A DNA stretch of 64,000 nucleotides from Parcubacteria bacterium C7867-004 (GCA_001189075.1 LFCN01000006.1:588866-652865); one strand, 5' to 3'. Shown: positions 44,463 to 51,725, counted from the stretch's first letter. Program-made: numbers and translations. The notes: a model not told the origin generated them from the letters alone.

Positions 44463-45026
44463 CTACGTCGAGTACCTCGTTCGGATGATTCTTCTCGCTT
44501 CCTTATGCTTAGGAACGGTCCGGGCGACCAGGTCCCAGAACCTCGCCGAGTGGTTGTGCTCCTTGGTATGGCAGAGCTCATGCACGATGATGTAGTCGGC
44601 GAGCTCGTGCGGAAGGAATGCGATGCGGTAGTTGAAAGAGAGATTGTTCTCCATGGAGCAGCTTCCCCAACGCGTTTTCTGATTCCGTATTGATATCCGT
44701 CCGTACGAGAATCCGTATGCCGTATTGAAATGCGGGAGCCTCTCCGTCACCAGCACCCTTGCTGCTTCCACCGCATCCTTGTACGCCTTCGATCCCCTTC
44801 TCGGTTTCGGAAGCGGTTCGGGAGCGACGCCCTTGTTCCGCTTCTCGAAATACGCTCTCGCCTTCTCAATCCACTCCGATTTGGTCGCCATCCACCGCTC
44901 GACTTCCCGTAGCGAAACGCGCTTCGGTTTCGTTACCACCACCCGCCCATCTGGTTCTACCGTAAGCCGCAGATTCTTCGCCCGCACTGATTCCCGTATC
45001 TCATATTCGATCCCCGACATTCCCAC
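44463..45026 (-). CDS. YgjP/DUF45-family metal-dependent hydrolase (WLM/SprT-like HExxH)
   Basis: HExxH in IIVHELCHTKEHNHSARFW. Size and layout typical of COG1451. Confidence 0.7.
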   Translation of the reverse strand: MGMSGIEYEIRESVRAKNLRLTVEPDGRVVVTKPKRVSLREVERWMATKSEWIEKARAYFEKRNKGVAPEPLPKPRRGSKAYKDAVEAARVLVTERLPHFNTAYGFSYGRISIRNQKTRWGSCSMENNLSFNYRIAFLPHELADYIIVHELCHTKEHNHSARFWDLVARTVPKHKEARRIIRTRYST

Positions 45027-45170: not shown

Positions 45171-45563
45171 TTACGCAAATAGAATTTGCTTCAGGCGCTT
45201 ACGTAAGCATTCGAAGGTTTCGATATCAAGAATATCGATTCTTCGTATGAGTCGCTTTGCATCTATTAAACGCACTTGCGATAGGTTTGCACATGCTTCC
45301 CGCTTTCCAACCATTCCGAGTGGTAAATAATATTCCCCTTTCTTCATTTTTCCTGTTAGAGCAACTCCAAAAAAGGTATTCCGATTAAATGCTCGAATCA
45401 CTACAATGGGCCTGTCGAAGTTCTTTCCAGTCCCATCTTGTTCGAATCCTATGTTCACGCCGAGAGCACATGACCATATCTCACGCTCTCGATAATGAGG
45501 ATACGTTCCGCGAACGTTCCTGAATTTCTTGCTCTTATTCCACTCATCGAAGTCCTTTTCCAT
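45171..45563 (-). CDS. PemK/MazF-family toxin paralog (130 aa) with the same N-terminal extension; no adjacent antitoxin ORF
   Basis: MEKDF..W...K...........Y.ERE.W.C.LG.NIGFEQDGTG shared with 25783-26169. SQVRLIDAKRLIRRIDILD matches the MazF C-terminal motif. Local GC ~42%. Confidence 0.75.
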   Translation of the reverse strand: MEKDFDEWNKSKKFRNVRGTYPHYREREIWSCALGVNIGFEQDGTGKNFDRPIVVIRAFNRNTFFGVALTGKMKKGEYYLPLGMVGKREACANLSQVRLIDAKRLIRRIDILDIETFECLRKRLKQILFA

Positions 45564-45633
45564 CTCACAAGCTTACAAAAAGGCACATAAAATAAACCTG
45601 GAGAAATCAGCACTATTTCCCTATACTTTAGAT

Positions 45634-46107
45634 ATGAAAACGGAGACCCGCTACTGGCTCATGAAATCCGAGCCGGAGAGCTACAGCATCGGGCACCTGA
45701 AGAAGGACAGGAAGACCGCTTGGAATGGCGTGCGCAACTATCAGGCCCGCAACTTCATGCGCGATATGAAGATAGGCGATCAGATCCTCTTCTATCATTC
45801 CAACTGTAAGGTCATGGGCGTATACGGCGTTGCCAAAGTCGCATCAGCCCCCTACCCCGACCCGACCCAGTTCGATCCCAAGAGTCACTATTTCGATACT
45901 AAAGCGACGAAGGCGAAACCCATTTGGGACCTCGTTGATATTGCCTACGTTTCTATGTTCAAAGAGCCGGTCACCCTCATCGACATCCGCGCGACCCCAT
46001 CGCTCAAATCGATGATTATCCTCCAGACAGGCTCCCGCCTTTCCGTCACTCCTGTCGACCCTGCGCATTTCAATACCATCCTCGCCCTCGCCAAAAGATA
46101 CATGTAA
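45634..46107 (+). CDS. EVE-domain (PUA-like) protein
   Basis: YWLMKSEPESYS...WNGVRNYQARNFMRDMKIGDQILFYHSN is the EVE signature. The track ORF from 45529 is an upstream extension. Confidence 0.8.
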   Translation: MKTETRYWLMKSEPESYSIGHLKKDRKTAWNGVRNYQARNFMRDMKIGDQILFYHSNCKVMGVYGVAKVASAPYPDPTQFDPKSHYFDTKATKAKPIWDLVDIAYVSMFKEPVTLIDIRATPSLKSMIILQTGSRLSVTPVDPAHFNTILALAKRYM

Positions 46108-46130
46108 AAGGCCCGCTCTGCGGGCCTTTT
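46106..46130. terminator. Bidirectional Rho-independent terminator (aaaaggcccgc-tct-gcgggcctttt)
   Basis: Perfect 11-bp stem flanked by A and T tracts, between convergent genes. Confidence 0.7.
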
Positions 46131-46148
46131 ACATACGAGTGTTCGTTG

Positions 46149-46878: not shown

Positions 46879-47160
46879 TTGGACGTTCATTCTGCCAACG
46901 ACGCGCGCGGATCCTTCAGCTGGATCCTTCCCGAGGCGGCCGCAGCGAGGCTTTCCGAGCTTCCCGCAGAGCAGCGCGACTCCTTCCTGAGGGCCGTCAC
47001 GGGCCTTTTTGAATCGAGGATTTCGCTTCTCGTCATGGCGACAGGCTTCGACGAGCCGATGGCCGGCATCGACATCCTTGCCGCGAGCGATGAAGAGCTC
47101 ATCGAAGTGCTCGAAGCGATCATTGTGCCCAAAGCACCTTCCGATCGACCGCCCTCCTAG
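46879..47160 (+). CDS. Small hypothetical protein A (93 aa, TTG start), paralog of 47310-47537
   Basis: SD GGAG 10 nt upstream. LPEAAAARLSELPAEQRDSFLRAVTGLFESRISLL aligns with LSEGIARNIENLPEDRRAFVRRSINGLLEAELSLI of the next gene. The stop TAG sits inside the terminator hairpin loop. Confidence 0.45.
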   Translation: MDVHSANDARGSFSWILPEAAAARLSELPAEQRDSFLRAVTGLFESRISLLVMATGFDEPMAGIDILAASDEELIEVLEAIIVPKAPSDRPPS

Positions 47161-47179
47161 GCCGGTCGATTTTCTTTTT
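47144..47179 (+). terminator. Terminator element copy 1 (atcgaccg-ccctcctaggc-cggtcgat TTTTCTTTTT); hairpin contains the gene's stop codon
   Basis: 8-bp perfect stem; nearly identical element at 47541-47575. Confidence 0.6.
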
Positions 47180-47309
47180 AACGCTTAGGTGATGCCTAGA
47201 CAATAACCCGATATTGTTATATAAAGCAGATACTAGTTCTTACAACGTTTGGGGAATGTGCGTGCCAATAGACTTCTATGAAATCCATGGGGACGGGGGC
47301 TGCATCAGC

Positions 47310-47537
47310 ATGACCCTTTCTGAAGGAATCGCGAGGAACATTGAGAATCTTCCCGAAGACCGGCGAGCCTTCGTTAGAAGGAGCATTAACGGCCTCCTGG
47401 AAGCTGAGCTCAGCCTTATCGCGGCTTCTCTTCTGGCTAATGAGGGGCGCGACAGCACGGAATGCCTCCAGTTCATGAGCAACAATAAGGCTCATCTCGC
47501 GGTGGAAATAGCCGTGATGCTCTTTGAGCCGAAATGA
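47310..47537 (+). CDS. Small hypothetical protein B (75 aa from the ATG at 47310; the track ORF starts at a TTG at 47214), paralog of A
   Basis: Alignable to protein A over ~45 aa; followed by a homologous terminator element. Confidence 0.45.
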   Translation: MTLSEGIARNIENLPEDRRAFVRRSINGLLEAELSLIAASLLANEGRDSTECLQFMSNNKAHLAVEIAVMLFEPK

Positions 47538-47540
47538 CGC

Positions 47541-47575
47541 AATCGACTGCCCTCCCCGGCGGTCGATTTTCTTTT
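47541..47575 (+). terminator. Terminator element copy 2 (atcgactgcc-ctcccc-ggcggtcgat TTTTCTTTTAT)
   Basis: 10-bp stem with one wobble; homologous to copy 1. Confidence 0.6.
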
Positions 47576-47583
47576 ATAGAAAA

Positions 47584-47608
47584 GCCCCGCGCAGCAAGCT
47601 GCGCGGGG
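47584..47608 (-). terminator. Rho-independent terminator of the ATP-grasp-like gene (gccccgcgcag-caa-ctgcgcggggc)
   Basis: Perfect 11-bp stem; the minus strand shows TTTTCTATAAAAG after the hairpin. Confidence 0.65.
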
Positions 47609-47624
47609 CCATAGTCCTCATACC

Positions 47625-48881
47625 CTATCCGAGCAAGACCGGGATCTGGATGCAGTCGGGAGCGCCGTGGACCTTCCGGTCCGGGCGCCCCGTCACTTCT
47701 GCATCCACCACACCGTCCTTGCCGATATAGGCGGTCACTCGGAGGTAGTAGTCCTTCGTCACCCGTTTCCCATCGTCACCAAAGACAACGATGGGAATGG
47801 GCACCTGCGGAACCTGTTCCTGAAGAATCCAGGAAGAGCCGTCGGATTTCGCCGACTGCGCCAACTGCTGTTCGAACTCCTTCGGATCGAGATCCGAGAA
47901 CAGCACCCGCTTCAGTCCCGAGGAGACGCACGCCTTGATGATGCGGGGCTTTCCCGCATCAGTCCGGTCGCGCCATCCCCAGTGCTTCTTGCCGACCAGC
48001 GTCGTCGCCGGGATGAATTCCTCCATCCCAGAGAACGCGCGCAGTTCAGGCAAAAACGCCTTCGAGCCCAGGTATGCGAGCGGCGGAAAGAAGGTCGCGA
48101 GACTCCCTTCCAGGTACCGCTTGATGAGCCGATCACGCACCGACGGATAGGTGTCGAGCGTGTCCGGGATCACGAGCACGCCGACGTCCGGGTCCGAGAA
48201 CAACGGGTGCTCGGTGTCGTTCGCGAGATCCGCTTCACTCACGGGAATCACGCGCATGCCGTACGCGCGAAGCGCATCGGCAAACACGTACGCCGAGGGT
48301 CCGTAATAGCGCTCGAACTCCGAGTAGAGCAGGTACCACCTCCGGATTTGAGGGTTGGTGTTCCGGATCTGAGCTTCGATACCGGCGAGGCCCGGGAACC
48401 GCGGCTTCCGGAAATCCTCCGGCAGCGAGAGCTCGAGCAGCGCCGCGTAGCCGAAGCCGCGCGGGTTGTAGCAGTCCACTTCCGCGATCTGGAAGGTGCC
48501 CTGCGGGTTCTGAACCAGATCCACCTTGATCACGGGCGGAATGGCCGGGACACCGTCTTCGGGAGCGAGCAGACCACGCTTGGCCAGCCGCGCGCACTTG
48601 AGCAACTTCGCTTCCGCGTGCGTGAGGTGCCGACCGGGAGCGGTGTACGAGCAGAGCCTGCCGCTCAGTTCCTCCACGGCCGCATAAGTCGTGGTCGCGA
48701 GGCGGTTCAGGTACTCCTGCTGTCCCGGCGAGAGCACGTAGGCTGCCGGCGAGAGCTGGTATCCGTGACGGATACGGCGCTCGGGGGTCCCCCAGAGGCC
48801 GCACTGAACGAGATAGGACTCGATAGCGTCGCGGTCGAAGCCCATATCGATAGTCGACGCGGGCGGGCTGTAGTCGTTCAT
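47625..48881 (-). CDS. Hypothetical enzyme with ATP-grasp-like motifs in apparently permuted order (candidate circularly permuted ATP-grasp amidoligase)
   Basis: 418 aa. GTFQIAEVDCYNPRGFGY resembles the ATP-grasp C-domain metal-binding strand (dG..y..EvN..PG) but lies near residue 135. A Lys-containing YLGSKAFLPEL and a Q-E hinge-like WILQEQVPQ lie C-terminal to it. Local GC ~62%. Fold call is inferred, not proven. Confidence 0.4.
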   Translation of the reverse strand: MNDYSPPASTIDMGFDRDAIESYLVQCGLWGTPERRIRHGYQLSPAAYVLSPGQQEYLNRLATTTYAAVEELSGRLCSYTAPGRHLTHAEAKLLKCARLAKRGLLAPEDGVPAIPPVIKVDLVQNPQGTFQIAEVDCYNPRGFGYAALLELSLPEDFRKPRFPGLAGIEAQIRNTNPQIRRWYLLYSEFERYYGPSAYVFADALRAYGMRVIPVSEADLANDTEHPLFSDPDVGVLVIPDTLDTYPSVRDRLIKRYLEGSLATFFPPLAYLGSKAFLPELRAFSGMEEFIPATTLVGKKHWGWRDRTDAGKPRIIKACVSSGLKRVLFSDLDPKEFEQQLAQSAKSDGSSWILQEQVPQVPIPIVVFGDDGKRVTKDYYLRVTAYIGKDGVVDAEVTGRPDRKVHGAPDCIQIPVLLG

Positions 48882-48979
48882 GACTTCCTCCGATGAACAT
48901 ATAACGATTGAGAAGATCAGTGACGCCCCGAACGGGCGTCCTGTTGGCGGTTTCTAGACTCCGCCAACAGGACGACAAC

Positions 48980-49402
48980 TTAGGGAATGATCTCGATCAG
49001 CTCCTGCATATGCTTGATCGTTGCCCAGGGGACATCGGTCCCATATGTGGGCGCATGTCCCGCAAAGAGCCCGCGCTTAAGCCATATGGTCTTAGCTCCT
49101 GCCTTATTCCCCGCTCGTATCTCGCTCTGGAGATAATCCCCGACGACGTATACCGTGCCCGAACTTCCTGAAACCAGCTCCTGAATAACCGGACCCTTAT
49201 CCCCCACGAACGCTACCGAAGCGAAGAAATCGCGTACCCCGAGCGTATCGAGCACATCATCACGCCCTCCCTCACGCCTCGAGACGAGATGGAGTGTCAT
49301 CCCGCGCTCCGCAAAATGCGTAAGCGCTTCAAGGGCGCCCGGCACAGCCGTGTCGGTCTCAGGGTCGTATATTGTTCTGTTGAAGTCGAAGATAATGGTC
49401 AT
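48980..49402 (-). CDS. HAD-superfamily hydrolase (small, ~140 aa)
   Basis: Motif I IIFDFNRTIY, motif II LVSR, motif IV VGDYLQSEIRAGNKAG. The track ORF extends to 49486; the likely start is MTIIFDF. Confidence 0.6.
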   Translation of the reverse strand: MTIIFDFNRTIYDPETDTAVPGALEALTHFAERGMTLHLVSRREGGRDDVLDTLGVRDFFASVAFVGDKGPVIQELVSGSSGTVYVVGDYLQSEIRAGNKAGAKTIWLKRGLFAGHAPTYGTDVPWATIKHMQELIEIIP

Positions 49403-49672
49403 ATGAATAGTGTTTAGAAGAGAAAAACCCGCCATCGAGGATGGCGGGTTTTTCCGTGCATTGATGCTGGTGAGTATCCTATGCAACGACGAAATCCGCC
49501 CCTCGGAAGAGGTGCCATACCTTGCCCATACGGCGGAAGGAATTGCTTGCGGTTGTCATGTGTACGGATAGTAGCATGGTATTTCTCATCTGCAAATTCA
49601 GTATGAATAACTCAGCGGTCGATTTCTTTTGGAGTTTGACGTATCGGTCCCCGGCGGTACCATCCAGGGGAA

Positions 49673-50182
49673 TTGTCAGGAGATTCTCTCCCCTTTCATT
49701 CCGTGAGGTACGCGATGCCGCATACGCTCGATACCGCTCAAGCCGCACTCAGCCTGCTCCGCTATGCTCAAGCGAGAACGACATTTGCAGCGGCGATGCT
49801 CAACATCGGAGAGTGCGCTGCAGCTCGTTCAGATATTGAAGCGCTTCTAAGCCTCCTTGAATCGTTCCTCGAGCTAGACCGGCCGTTCGATCGTCCGCTC
49901 TACCTGAAGCTGCTTCAGGACCTCGGCAAGCCGATTGTGTTGATGGAGGTGATCGAGGCGGAACAGTCGCACGTGCTGTGGATGAGCCAGCTCGAACATG
50001 AGCTACGCCGCTCGGCCGCATTTGCCGCCTGCCTCCTCGGCGCGATCGAGGTGACTAACGGCGACATGGAAGCTGCTGTTGGCGCGTTCGAAAAGGCCCT
50101 CAAGTTCAAGCCCGGCTACCACGACGCCAAGGTGGGCCTGGCCCACACCCAAGCTCGCCTCAAAGCCGCCGGCCGTCCCTAG
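49673..50182 (+). CDS. Hypothetical protein with C-terminal TPR-like helices (169 aa)
   Basis: GDMEAAVGAFEKALKFKPGYHDAKVGLAHTQARL is TPR-like. The stop TAG sits in the loop of a terminator hairpin related to copies 1 and 2. Confidence 0.4.
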   Translation: MSGDSLPFHSVRYAMPHTLDTAQAALSLLRYAQARTTFAAAMLNIGECAAARSDIEALLSLLESFLELDRPFDRPLYLKLLQDLGKPIVLMEVIEAEQSHVLWMSQLEHELRRSAAFAACLLGAIEVTNGDMEAAVGAFEKALKFKPGYHDAKVGLAHTQARLKAAGRP

Positions 50183-50417
50183 GGGCGGCCGCTTTTCTTT
50201 TACCGGTTCTGCGCAGCTGCGAGACTAAACTGGAAGCAGCCGAAGACTGGGGAGCCGATGAGCGGTATGACCGACCGTGTCCTCGAGTGGCGGCTCTCCG
50301 CGAGAGGAGGCGACCTTTAGTCTTCGTGTCGCCCTGGAATGCCGTAGCTGTCTCGCGGATCGCAGAATCGAGCGGAAGTGCCGGTATCAAGAAAGCGCCC
50401 CTGAGGGCGCCTTTCTT

Positions 50418-51725
50418 TTAGTATGACTTGAGCCTCCGACTCTTCTCATGCGTCCTAATCTTCTCGAGCGCCTTAGCCTCGATCTGCCTGATGCGCTCAC
50501 GCGTCACCCCAAACTCCTTCCCCACTTCCTCAAGCGTGTGATACACGCCATCGAGGAGACCATGACGCATCTCGAGAATCTTGCGCTCCTTCGGGGAGAG
50601 GTCTTCGAGAATGTCGCGGACCTGCTCGCCGAGGATGCGCTCGGAAGATTCCTGGACCGGGGACGGGATCTTGTCGTCAGCGATGAAGTCGCCCAGCGTC
50701 GAGTTCTGGTCATCATCGGAACCGATCGGGTTCTCGAGCGAGAGGGTGTCCTGATTGATCTTCTCGATCTGGTAGATCTTGTCTACTTCGACACCCATCT
50801 CAACCGCAATCTCTTCCGGCTGCGGATCGCGGCCAAGCACCTGTGCAAGCCTGCGGGAGACCTGCTTGTACTTGGCGATAGTCTCCACCATGTGCACCGG
50901 AATGCGGATGGTGCGGGACTGGTCGGCGAGCGCGCGGGTTATGGCCTGGCGGATCCACCACGTCGCATACGTCGAGAACTTGTAGCCCTTCTTCCAGTCG
51001 AACTTGTCGACGGCCTTGAAGAGGCCGAGGTTCCCTTCCTGGATGAGGTCGAGGAGGGTGAGGTCGGGAGAGCGTCCGACGTACTTCTTCGCGATGGATA
51101 CCACGAGGCGGAGGTTCGAGCGAGCAAGGATGTTGCGGGCCTCGTCGTCGCCGGCGTCGATCCTTTGAGCCAGCTCGCGCTCTTCGGACGCGGTCAAAAG
51201 CGGGTACTGTCCGATCTCACGGAGATAGATCTGGATGGAGTCGTAGGTAGAAGAATCACGCCCCTTGATGTTGCGAGTCGCCAGGTACTGGTCCGTAGTG
51301 TCCTCGAGCATGCCGCCTTCGAGGATGTCGATGCCGCTCGTGGTGAAGCGCTCATAGAGCTCGTCGAGGAAGTTCACGTCGTCTTCGACATGCGGGAACT
51401 CCTTGAGGATCTCGCTGTAGGTGATGTAGCCACGCTCCTTTCCCTTCTTGATGAGCATCTCTGCCTTATCAAGCTTCTGGGCAGCAGCCTTTGCCTTCGC
51501 TCCCGTCGCAGCCGCACGGACGACTGCCTTCAGCTTCTCCTTCTTTGCAGGAGATTTCTTTGCGGCGACTTTCTTCGCTACCTTCTTTACGGCTTTCTTC
51601 ACCGCTTTCTTAGCAACCTTTTTTACCGGCTTTTTAGCCGCTGGCTTCTTAGCCACGGTCTTCTTCTTCGCTACTGCTTTCTTAGCCGGTTTCGCAACCT
51701 TTTTCACGGGCTTCTTTGTGGGCAT
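50418..51725 (-). CDS. rpoD: Primary (group 1) sigma-70 factor with Lys/Ala-rich histone-H1-like N-terminal extension
   Basis: N-terminal ~90 aa of AKKAVKK/PAKK repeats. Region 2 [41 protein letters not shown]. Regions 3 and 4 conserved (ILEMRHGL...TLEEVG). Lies directly downstream of dnaG. Confidence 0.9.

Follow-up and report, generated by a model that had tools for sequence, protein, structure and literature searches.

Among the ATP-grasp enzymes, glutathione synthetase (GS) is an ATP-dependent carboxylate-amine ligase in which the Mg-binding strand comes before the Lys loop and the hinge, a permuted order of motifs. The genes for YgiC and YjfC have DUF1190 and DUF350 genes as partners, and typical neighbours of CP_ATPgrasp_2 genes encode alpha-E domain proteins, transglutaminases and NTN-hydrolases. 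Graspetide enzymes are RimK-like ATP-grasp proteins, and some other ATP-grasp enzymes are kinases. In C. jejuni, the amidoligase Cj1438C uses a phosphorylated amine, and Cj1435, a 25.8-kDa protein demonstrated to be a HAD phosphatase, then removes the phosphate (PMC11800397). Attenuators of the trpL type are built on a short ORF (open reading frame) that overlaps segments 1 and 2 of the transcript, a 2:3 antiterminator that competes with a 3:4 terminator, and a Trp codon placed so as to free segment 2. SpeFL and TnaC, too, are leader ORFs of small size, in which an Arg-Arg/His motif or a Trp is essential, and they control a downstream operon via transcription termination. Here we describe a locus that can be set beside each of these systems. 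It lies in a stretch of 64,000 nucleotides (nt) from Parcubacteria bacterium C7867-004 (GCA_001189075.1 LFCN01000006.1:588866-652865), which we call the window, and it consists of the gene for an ATP-grasp ligase of 418 amino acids (aa), the gene for a small HAD-superfamily protein before it on the same strand, and two small ORFs, A and B, convergent with the ligase gene.

We consider it probable that the ligase and HAD genes make up a conserved and self-contained operon of Patescibacteria, in which a GS-like ligase and its HAD partner are controlled by a leader-peptide attenuator and by an RNA motif that we call P1/P2, and to which A and B are unrelated. The proposed operon would run, in order, promoter, leader ORF, terminator T1, HAD, P1/P2 RNA and ligase, and its features in the window are the following.

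49568..49596, minus strand: sigma-70-like promoter (-35 TTTGCA/TTGCAG, extended -10 TGC-TACTAT), ending 8 nt before the leader ATG
49479..49559, minus strand: near-leaderless leader ORF of 26 codons, MTTASNSFRRMGKVWHLFRGADFVVA, recognized by translation and by conserved counterparts elsewhere
49515..49517, minus strand: UGG, the conserved Trp codon of the leader ORF, which precedes segment 2 by 16 nt
49492..49504, minus strand: segment 2, GAGG-GGCGGAUUU, the 3' arm of hairpin T0 and a mimic of the T1 3' arm; predicted to be the antiterminator strand
49420..49457, minus strand: terminator T1 (segments 3:4), a perfect 15-bp stem at 49422-49454 with A-tract and U-tract
48980..49402, minus strand: HAD-superfamily protein, 140 aa, capless, motif I D-F-N-R-T; ATG at 49402
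48922..48976, minus strand: P1/P2 RNA motif in the HAD-ligase spacer; covariance model match of 64 bits, fold z -5.6
~48904-48921, minus strand: conserved U/C-rich box, here GAUCUUCUC, following P1/P2
48887..48891, minus strand: Shine-Dalgarno (SD) sequence GGAGG of the ligase gene, read from the sequence
47625..48881, minus strand: ATP-grasp ligase, 418 aa, GS/GspS-like and circularly permuted by its homologs, motifs, model and Foldseek matches
47583..47610, minus strand: terminator of the ligase gene, a GC-rich hairpin followed by a U-run; -27.7 kcal/mol, 12 pairs

The pairing of the two genes was followed through 29 genome loci and 28 metagenome loci, all of them fetched for the ligase. By tblastn, the HAD gene lies directly upstream of the ligase gene in 27 of the 29 genome loci; it is downstream in L020 and absent from L024. 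Those metagenome loci that have enough flanking DNA again carry the HAD gene upstream of the ligase gene. When all ORFs were clustered over the loci, only two clusters, ligase and HAD, were widely shared, and the next best was found in 4 loci only. A wider conserved neighbourhood was looked for and rejected: the MetK, GlmS and aminoacyl-tRNA synthetase neighbours are restricted to closely related genomes, and a Pfam census of 103 flanking genes returned unrelated, mixed housekeeping genes. Likewise, the slot downstream of the ligase gene is filled elsewhere by unrelated genes, and the closest relative, L032 (61% identity), has membrane-protein genes at the position of A and B. L020 and L041 (Moraniibacteriota MKparc2, complete genome) show an inverted order, with the ligase gene first, the HAD gene downstream and a different long hairpin before the ligase gene. 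The full cassette of leader ORF, T1, HAD, P1/P2 (with loop UCAUGA) and ligase also occurs in L026, a contig from a bin assigned outside Patescibacteria (its record is titled Candidatus Azotimanducaceae), by either a binning error or horizontal transfer.

The ligase is 100% identical to AB199_03790 of Parcubacteria bacterium C7867-004, and assembly GCA_002398375.1 holds an identical 11-kb stretch. An earlier reading of the window, made from the sequence alone, had proposed a circularly permuted ATP-grasp enzyme from the order of its motifs, and both the order and the permutation held up. The motifs run K119/D121, E134/D136/N139, then K274, K316/S320/G322/K324, Q354-E355, R381 and R399. Across 37 homologs, K119, D121, E134, D136, N139, K274, K316, S320, G322 and K324 are invariant, as are Q354, R381, R399 and the stretch H405-G-A-P-D-C, while E355 of the Q354-E355 hinge is invariant or nearly so. 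From a weak alignment, we infer that these conserved residues are equivalent to residues of glutathionylspermidine synthetase (GspS). An AlphaFold model made from the family alignment has a predicted local distance difference test score (pLDDT) of 93.2 and a predicted template modelling score (pTM) of 0.92. When the model was searched against the PDB with Foldseek, 50 matches were obtained at E <= 1e-3, all from a single structural family: eukaryotic homoglutathione and glutathione synthetases (3kal, 8fbz, 2hgs, 1m0w, 5oes), E. coli YjfC/YgiC (7uk6, 7uk8), glutathionylspermidine/trypanothione synthetases (2io9, 2vpm), and two structural-genomics proteins, 3n6x (Mfla_0391) and 3k1t. These matches are near full length, with E values from 3.5e-13 to 3.5e-9 (the latter for 3n6x) and template modelling (TM) scores of ~0.6. 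Because the Foldseek alignments are sequential, with E values of 1e-13 to 1e-11 for 3kal, 8fbz, 7uk6 and 2io9, the ligase has the permuted order of the GS/GspS enzymes.

At the level of sequence, the one Pfam signal is CP_ATPgrasp_2 (PF14403), at 15.7 bits and E 0.0075, below the 32-bit gathering threshold; the weak match falls on one and the same segment, the Mg-binding strand, in 25 of the 37 family members (best E 3.8e-4). NCBIfam gave nothing, a PDB profile search gave noise only, there was no Pfam GSH_synth match, and hhalign against YgiC returned a probability of 0.5%, which is not significant. The ligase has a compact, well-conserved family of 89 relatives, every one from a Patescibacteria-type source and none with an annotation or a Pfam domain. 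A HMMER profile run over 1.84 billion representatives found only 141 clusters (50% identity) at E <= 1e-30 and 373 at E <= 1e-3, and therefore the family is rare. Guided by the model, we file the ligase as a putative new family inside the GS/GspS-like branch rather than placing it in CP_ATPgrasp_2 or GSP_synth. A distant subfamily (P0187, P0196, P0188, P0223) has EIEGDKTH in place of EVDxYNPRG and a C-terminal VHGAKDAIQ. Two of its members, P0187 (619 aa) and P0196 (601 aa), carry a basic N-terminal extension of ~170-185 aa; a fusion of HAD and ligase was considered for these long relatives and rejected, as the extension has no HAD motifs on reading the sequence.

That a small HAD precedes the ligase on the same strand had also been noticed from the sequence alone, and it is confirmed at 48980-49402. 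The protein matches Pfam Hydrolase_like at 25.7 bits (cut-off 22) and HAD structures in the PDB at E values down to 5e-13. Profile matches to these structures (PH1655, YutF, YfnB, HDHD2, LHPP and others) align only from the end of the cap onward, and thus the protein is a bare, capless core. In capless HADs, closure of the active site usually depends on a partner or on a large substrate. D7, R10, T11, R48, K70, G89-D90 and E95 are invariant and S42 is at least 90% conserved, so that the Asp nucleophile, the Ser of motif II, the Lys of motif III and an acidic motif IV are all retained. However, motif I reads D-x-N-R-T and not D-x-D-x-T/V, with Asn where the general acid/base Asp is expected; N9 is present in 22 of 23 sequences and is replaced by Met in L022. 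An absent +2 Asp is seen in HADs that are not hydrolases of simple phosphomonoesters or that keep a long-lived aspartyl-phosphate.

Upstream of the HAD gene, 170-270 nt are non-coding in all loci, whichever gene lies beyond. The loci share a promoter layout, sigma-70-like with an extended -10, and the leader ATG follows 6-9 nt past the -10 box, so the leader transcript is leaderless or nearly so. In ~35 loci there is a leader ORF of 22-29 codons, predicted to be translated, which contains a small hairpin, T0 (segments 1:2), and is followed after its stop codon by a variable hairpin. T1, with its A-tract, CCCGC-type stem and U-tract, is found in most of 30 loci, roughly 6-45 nt before the HAD ATG; in the window it ends 18 nt before that ATG, which has no SD sequence there. 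A box in the 3' part of the leader ORF, GGCGG(A/G)YUUU, mimics the 3' arm of T1, with identity over 14 nt in L003. Among upstream sequences, it is always this 3' part of the ORF, typically ~10 nt before the stop codon, that pairs best with the 5' arm of T1, and the 2:3 pairing often comes close to T1 in energy: -26.7 vs -27.9, -22.7 vs -23.5, -20.6 vs -24.5 and -23.1 vs -26.1 kcal/mol. None of 200 shuffles was as good as the 2:3 pairing in 12 of 27 loci, only 1-3 were in several more, and z reached down to -7.4.

The position of the Trp codon is also constrained. Counted from its first base, the median distance to segment 2 downstream is 16.5 nt over 22 loci, and in nine of them the distance is exactly 16 nt. 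With UGG in the A site, segment 1 and the loop of T0 would lie under the leading edge of the ribosome while segment 2 stayed free, which is the geometry of trp-type attenuation. The leader peptides are otherwise poorly conserved (Arg 9.7%, His 7.2%, Trp 3.8%), and the frame in which the segment 2 box is read varies by group (GCG-GAU vs A-GC-GGG). Because of this variation, the constraint at segment 2 is taken to act on the RNA and not on the peptide, which in turn argues against the leader ORF as a substrate peptide. Rfam 15 gave only sub-threshold, terminator-like matches upstream of the HAD gene (Thr_leader, rnk leader). Divergent from the leader promoter, at 49715-50182 on the plus strand, the window encodes a small TPR-like protein (sub-threshold TPR matches) that is not conserved beside the operon elsewhere.

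The second putative regulatory element lies in the HAD-ligase spacer. The 98 nt of this spacer are nearly the same in the window and in L032, despite protein identities of only 55-61%, and one of the few differences is a compensatory change from G-C to A-U. In the window, P1 is a 14-bp hairpin with the loop AG-UCUAGA-AA (48951-48960), and its base is overlapped by a second, short hairpin, P2. In an alignment of 26 spacers, the 14 pairs of P1 are 92% paired and 11 of them show double compensatory changes, which 0 of 500 shuffles matched; P1 slid along the alignment as a control was 27-53% paired. P2 is 97.6% paired, with compensatory changes in 4 of its 5 pairs. The 5' arm of P2 consists of nucleotides that also form the four pairs at the base of P1, and both pairings covary, which suggests a switch. 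A covariance model seeded with 22 spacers found one match per locus in 34 loci, i.e., 33 fetched loci and the window, 12 of which were outside the seed. These matches are always just upstream of the ligase start, they score 43-70 bits in the sense direction vs 14-44 in antisense, and no other match was found below E 0.3 in 452 kb. Rfam 15 had no match (E <= 1) at 48882-48979 or in the equivalent spacers of nine loci. P1 was also considered as a dispersed repeat and rejected, since within the window it occurs only at 48940/48961.

The 10-nt loop of P1 is highly conserved, with two purines, a 6-nt palindrome and A-N. Its hexamer is always self-complementary, being UCUAGA in most loci, UCCGGA in ~9, UCAUGA in one and possibly AUGCAU in the divergent loci L018/L021. 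Because adjacent loop bases cannot pair in cis, the palindrome, seen in three or four variants, may point to RNAs that pair with each other through their loops or to a binding partner with symmetry. The box after P2, (A/G)UUCUUUCAC, which contains UUCUUUC, is found in the spacers of most loci and is kept even in distant ones with different hairpins, including L050 and L059. In L024 (430-700), a T1-like terminator abuts P1/P2 directly and the ligase gene then follows; as this locus keeps P1/P2 without HAD, the motif belongs to the 5' region of the ligase gene and not to the 3' end of the HAD gene.

We suggest the following scheme for the operon. By the chemistry of its family, the ligase would turn a carboxylate into an activated acyl-phosphate with the help of ATP and Mg2+ and link it to an amine, so that an amide results; for its substrate, a small molecule or else a short peptide is the likeliest candidate. 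The HAD protein would most likely remove or handle a phosphoryl group on the substrate or product of the ligase, as Cj1435 does after Cj1438C; alternatively, it may act on a phosphate with a good leaving group, such as an acyl-phosphate or a P-N bond. In the attenuator, a ribosome pausing at or near the Trp codon would cover segment 1 and free segment 2, which could then pair with the 5' arm of T1 and cause antitermination. A ribosome that runs to the stop codon would cover segment 2 instead, and with no ribosome at all segment 2 would be held in T0; in either case T1 is expected to form and transcription to end before the HAD gene. P1/P2 and the UUCUUUC box may add a further layer of control at the ligase gene.

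Several observations weigh against this scheme. The window's own 2:3 pairing is weak (z -1.0), with -12.5 kcal/mol against -25.7 for T1. The leader has one Trp codon instead of a run, and ~7 of roughly 37 leader ORFs have no Trp at that place. By sequence, the ligase belongs to no curated ATP-grasp family, its best Pfam score being 15.7 bits against a cut-off of 32. The Asn at D+2 of the HAD protein speaks against an ordinary phosphomonoesterase. L024 carries T1 and P1/P2 but no HAD gene, and therefore HAD is not indispensable in cis. Finally, pairing of the UUCUUUC box, as an anti-SD, with the SD sequence of the ligase gene was tried and rejected, as its duplex energies were no better than those of composition-matched shuffles (mean z -0.1, in what is a weak test).

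The small ORFs and their terminators occupy the other side of the ligase gene, on the opposite strand.

46879..47160, plus strand: small ORF A, 93 aa, TTG start; an orphan, paralog of B, outside the conserved operon
47143..47179, plus strand: terminator of A, hairpin at 47143-47171 and then a U-run; -16.6 kcal/mol, z -3.8
47310..47537, plus strand: small ORF B, 75 aa from the ATG at 47310; an orphan with a three-helix model
47541..47576, plus strand: terminator of B, a near-identical copy of that of A, with U-run; -18.5 kcal/mol, z about -3.9

The sequence-only reading had described A and B as paralogs, each with a nearly identical terminator, and had placed the TAG stop codon of A inside its hairpin. 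The paralogy is supported, weakly (BLASTP E 0.004, ~12 of 35 identities in the core quoted in that reading), and the other two statements are correct. The 3' ends of A and B together with their terminators are 79% identical across ~80 nt, both terminators fold (z about -3.9), and the TAG (47158-47160) lies within the apical part of the hairpin. In the 64 kb, the terminator core GGTCGATTTTCTTTT has exact matches only at 47164 and 47561, with a chance expectation of 0.1. A candidate third terminator of this type at 49614 was rejected, being only 74% similar and without a fold (z 0.0). Terminators at 50184-50202 and 50402-50420 share a TTTTCTTTTA-type tail with those of A and B, e.g., GGCGGCCGCTTTTCTTTTA after the TPR gene; we take this tail to be a local style of terminator, the specific likeness of A and B being confined to the stems.

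The codon usage of the called frames is coding-like, at +0.27 bits per codon for A and +0.20 for the short form of B, against 0.44 +/- 0.22 for in-frame chunks of training genes and -0.50 for out-of-frame chunks. The start of B is most likely the ATG at 47310, giving 75 aa; the public gene call has 93 aa from 47256 and the longest ORF begins at 47214, and the 5' extension has a non-coding look, with a codon score of -0.24. Because the TGA of B is aligned to a GCA codon of A, the tail of A, 'APSDRPPS', would be a read-through into the duplicated terminator. The aligned sequences point to a gene that was duplicated in tandem along with its terminator, after which one stop codon was lost or shifted. 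Among 5.8 billion proteins, the only relatives of A and B are A and B themselves; tblastn found no copies in the 29 genome loci that carry the ligase or in the contig of its closest relative, and the PHROGs and PADLOC scans were empty. B is modelled as a three-helix bundle or hairpin (pLDDT 79.5). A ribbon-helix-helix or other known fold was considered for A and B and no assignment could be made, the best Foldseek match of B having an E value of 1.8. We take A and B to be lineage-specific orphans without relation to the HAD-ligase operon.

Other readings of these data have to be weighed against the operon scheme, and two of them concern the leader ORF. It could be a metabolite-sensing arrest peptide like TnaC or SpeFL, responding not to Trp-tRNA but to, e.g., a basic amino acid or polyamine used by the ligase, which would be bound by nascent chain and exit tunnel and would stall the ribosome close to the Trp. 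The stretches before the Trp are rich in Arg and His ('RRxHxxMW', 'THAYRRW', 'AHRRRGMKW') and recall the ornithine-sensing motif HIRRXXH of SpeFL; there is one Trp rather than a run, and fold relatives of the ligase take polyamines as the amine substrate. However, the likeness to SpeFL is short and comes with no alignment statistic, the ORF sequence is highly variable among loci, and SpeFL and TnaC stall at the stop codon, where a ribosome would here cover segment 2 and favour termination. We regard this as unlikely, though it deserves more credit than any other alternative that we considered. It would be more surprising still if the small ORF encoded a precursor of a ribosomally synthesized and post-translationally modified peptide (RiPP), modified by ligase and HAD together, with T1 as a leaky terminator that sets the ratio of peptide to enzymes. 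Nearly all loci do have such an ORF directly upstream of the enzymes, and a Trp and basic residues are conserved in it; moreover, the fold relative YgiC of E. coli is annotated as a peptide-spermidine ligase. Yet the peptide is poorly conserved, its C-termini vary and seven ORFs have no Trp, while the recurring 'EADF/AGF/SGFF' stretch coincides with RNA segment 2, whose frame varies between groups. Moreover, the mimicry of the T1 3' arm by segment 2 at a fixed position is specific to an attenuator, and the geometry between Trp codon and segment 2 is fixed as well; for these reasons a RiPP precursor appears improbable.

The chemistry and the RNA motif can also be read differently. If the ATP-grasp protein were a kinase or phosphotransferase, the DxN HAD protein could serve as phosphoryl acceptor or relay, with a long-lived aspartyl-phosphate, or as an acyl-phosphate hydrolase; the Asn at D+2 removes the general acid/base for phosphomonoester hydrolysis, and ligase and HAD are strictly paired. 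We think this very unlikely, given that every close fold relative of the ligase is a carboxylate-amine ligase and that L024 has the ligase without an adjacent HAD, and we know of no precedent. There is still less to be said for P1 as an inverted repeat of the DNA, such as the operator of a dimeric regulator or an element like a repetitive extragenic palindrome (REP), and not an RNA structure. The repeat is long and has a central 6-bp palindrome (TCTAGA, TCCGGA or TCATGA), but the stems covary while their sequence changes freely, and G-U pairs that exist only in the sense strand are frequent (pair 21-58 is UG in 11 sequences, 22-57 is GU in 10 and 32-47 is UG in 9). Sense scores are always above antisense scores, and the motif has one fixed position per operon instead of being dispersed, all of which makes a DNA element extremely unlikely. 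The interpretation that we find hardly credible is the one suggested by the sequence-only reading, in which A and B are small-protein or peptide substrates of the convergent ligase, as in graspetide-like or peptide-tagging systems. A and B do adjoin the ligase gene here, they are paralogs with a common terminator, and their codon usage is coding-like. On the other hand, they lie on the opposite strand with terminators of their own and have no homologs elsewhere, the slot downstream of the ligase is occupied by unrelated genes in other genomes, and the fold of the ligase is like that of GS and not like RimK or graspetide enzymes. The co-occurrence of A and B with the enzyme across genomes, which the same reading had proposed as a check, was seen in none of 30 ligase loci by tblastn, including the closest relative at 61% identity. 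The operon scheme, with A and B set apart from it, is therefore the reading that we retain.

Patescibacteria, the candidate phyla radiation, have tiny genomes with little recognisable regulation or biosynthesis, and here a two-enzyme module is kept together across Paceibacteria-type lineages under unusually elaborate control. If confirmed, the operon would clearly exemplify ribosome-coupled attenuation in the candidate phyla radiation and would add a new RNA motif of the cis-regulatory kind, odd for its palindromic loop, and the signal sensed by the attenuator should point to the pathway of the module. Our results also correct a tempting inference from gene neighbourhood: small ORFs beside an ATP-grasp gene need not be its substrates. 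At our most speculative, we can imagine that the leader ORF, through its nascent peptide and in the manner of TnaC or SpeFL, senses the amine or amino-acid substrate of the ligase, that the P1 loop kisses another RNA, so that mRNAs dimerise, or binds a dedicated protein, and that the module is a new Patescibacteria amide pathway in which the D-x-N HAD handles an acyl- or N-phosphate, a combination that we would not bet on but find a little less improbable than a RiPP precursor.

Farther from the operon, the window encodes a YgjP-like metallopeptidase (44463-45026, minus strand, E 9e-45), a PemK/MazF-like toxin for which no obvious antitoxin ORF was noted (45171-45563, minus strand, E 5e-9) and an EVE-domain protein (45529-46107, plus strand, E 3e-57). 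A perfect 15-nt inverted repeat, ATGTAAAAGGCCCGC / GCGGGCCTTTTACAT, at 46102-46134 between the convergent EVE and DUF5666 genes is probably a bidirectional terminator.

When the locus is set beside known systems, the ligase finds its best structural match in GS and homoglutathione synthetase (3kal, 2hgs, 1m0w, 5oes; E 3.5e-13, TM 0.54-0.64, ~480 aligned columns), with which it shares the permuted order. Its identity to these enzymes is just 9-14%, and the context of HAD partner and attenuator is different. YgiC/YjfC and the synthetase domain of GspS (7uk6, 7uk8, 2io9) come second, with TM scores to the target of 0.65-0.68, and their motif R/K-x-D ... E-x-N/D-x-(D/N)-(T)P aligns with KVDLV...AEVDCYNPRG of the ligase, in the hhalign comparison of 0.5% probability mentioned above. 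Unlike the GspS/YgiC systems, the ligase has no amidase domain and no DUF1190 or DUF350 partners. YgiC has been found to be without GspS activity (PMC12506659). CP_ATPgrasp_2 is the sole curated family with any sequence signal, but its typical neighbours are absent from the ligase loci, where HAD is the only conserved neighbour. As for graspetide systems, no RimK or MdnB/C-type chain is among the top 50 fold matches of the ligase.

In the literature searched, we found no report of a leaderless attenuator with a Trp codon combined with an RNA motif that Rfam does not list, nor of an attenuator of trp-leader type in the candidate phyla radiation. The attenuator shares with the trpL type its overlap of ORF and segments 1/2, its competing 2:3 and 3:4 pairings and the placement of its Trp codon; it differs in having a single Trp codon, which is missing in ~20% of loci, a near-leaderless ORF, and downstream genes that do not belong to amino acid biosynthesis. 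SpeFL and TnaC work by way of Rho, with the stall at the stop codon, and what the leader ORF has in common with them is a short, loosely conserved motif; we treat the resemblance of 'RRxH..MW' to HIRRXXH of SpeFL as a lead only. The HIV-1 DIS kissing loop and the hairpins of the guanidine-II riboswitch have self-complementary loops, and the P1 loop palindrome, known here from three or four sequence variants, resembles them, again as no more than a lead. For the ligase-HAD pair as a whole, the best functional analogy is Cj1438C and Cj1435, an analogy for which we claim no homology: the C. jejuni enzymes work in the context of capsule synthesis, whereas here the two genes form an operon of their own, and the HAD protein is a capless D-x-N protein of 140 aa.

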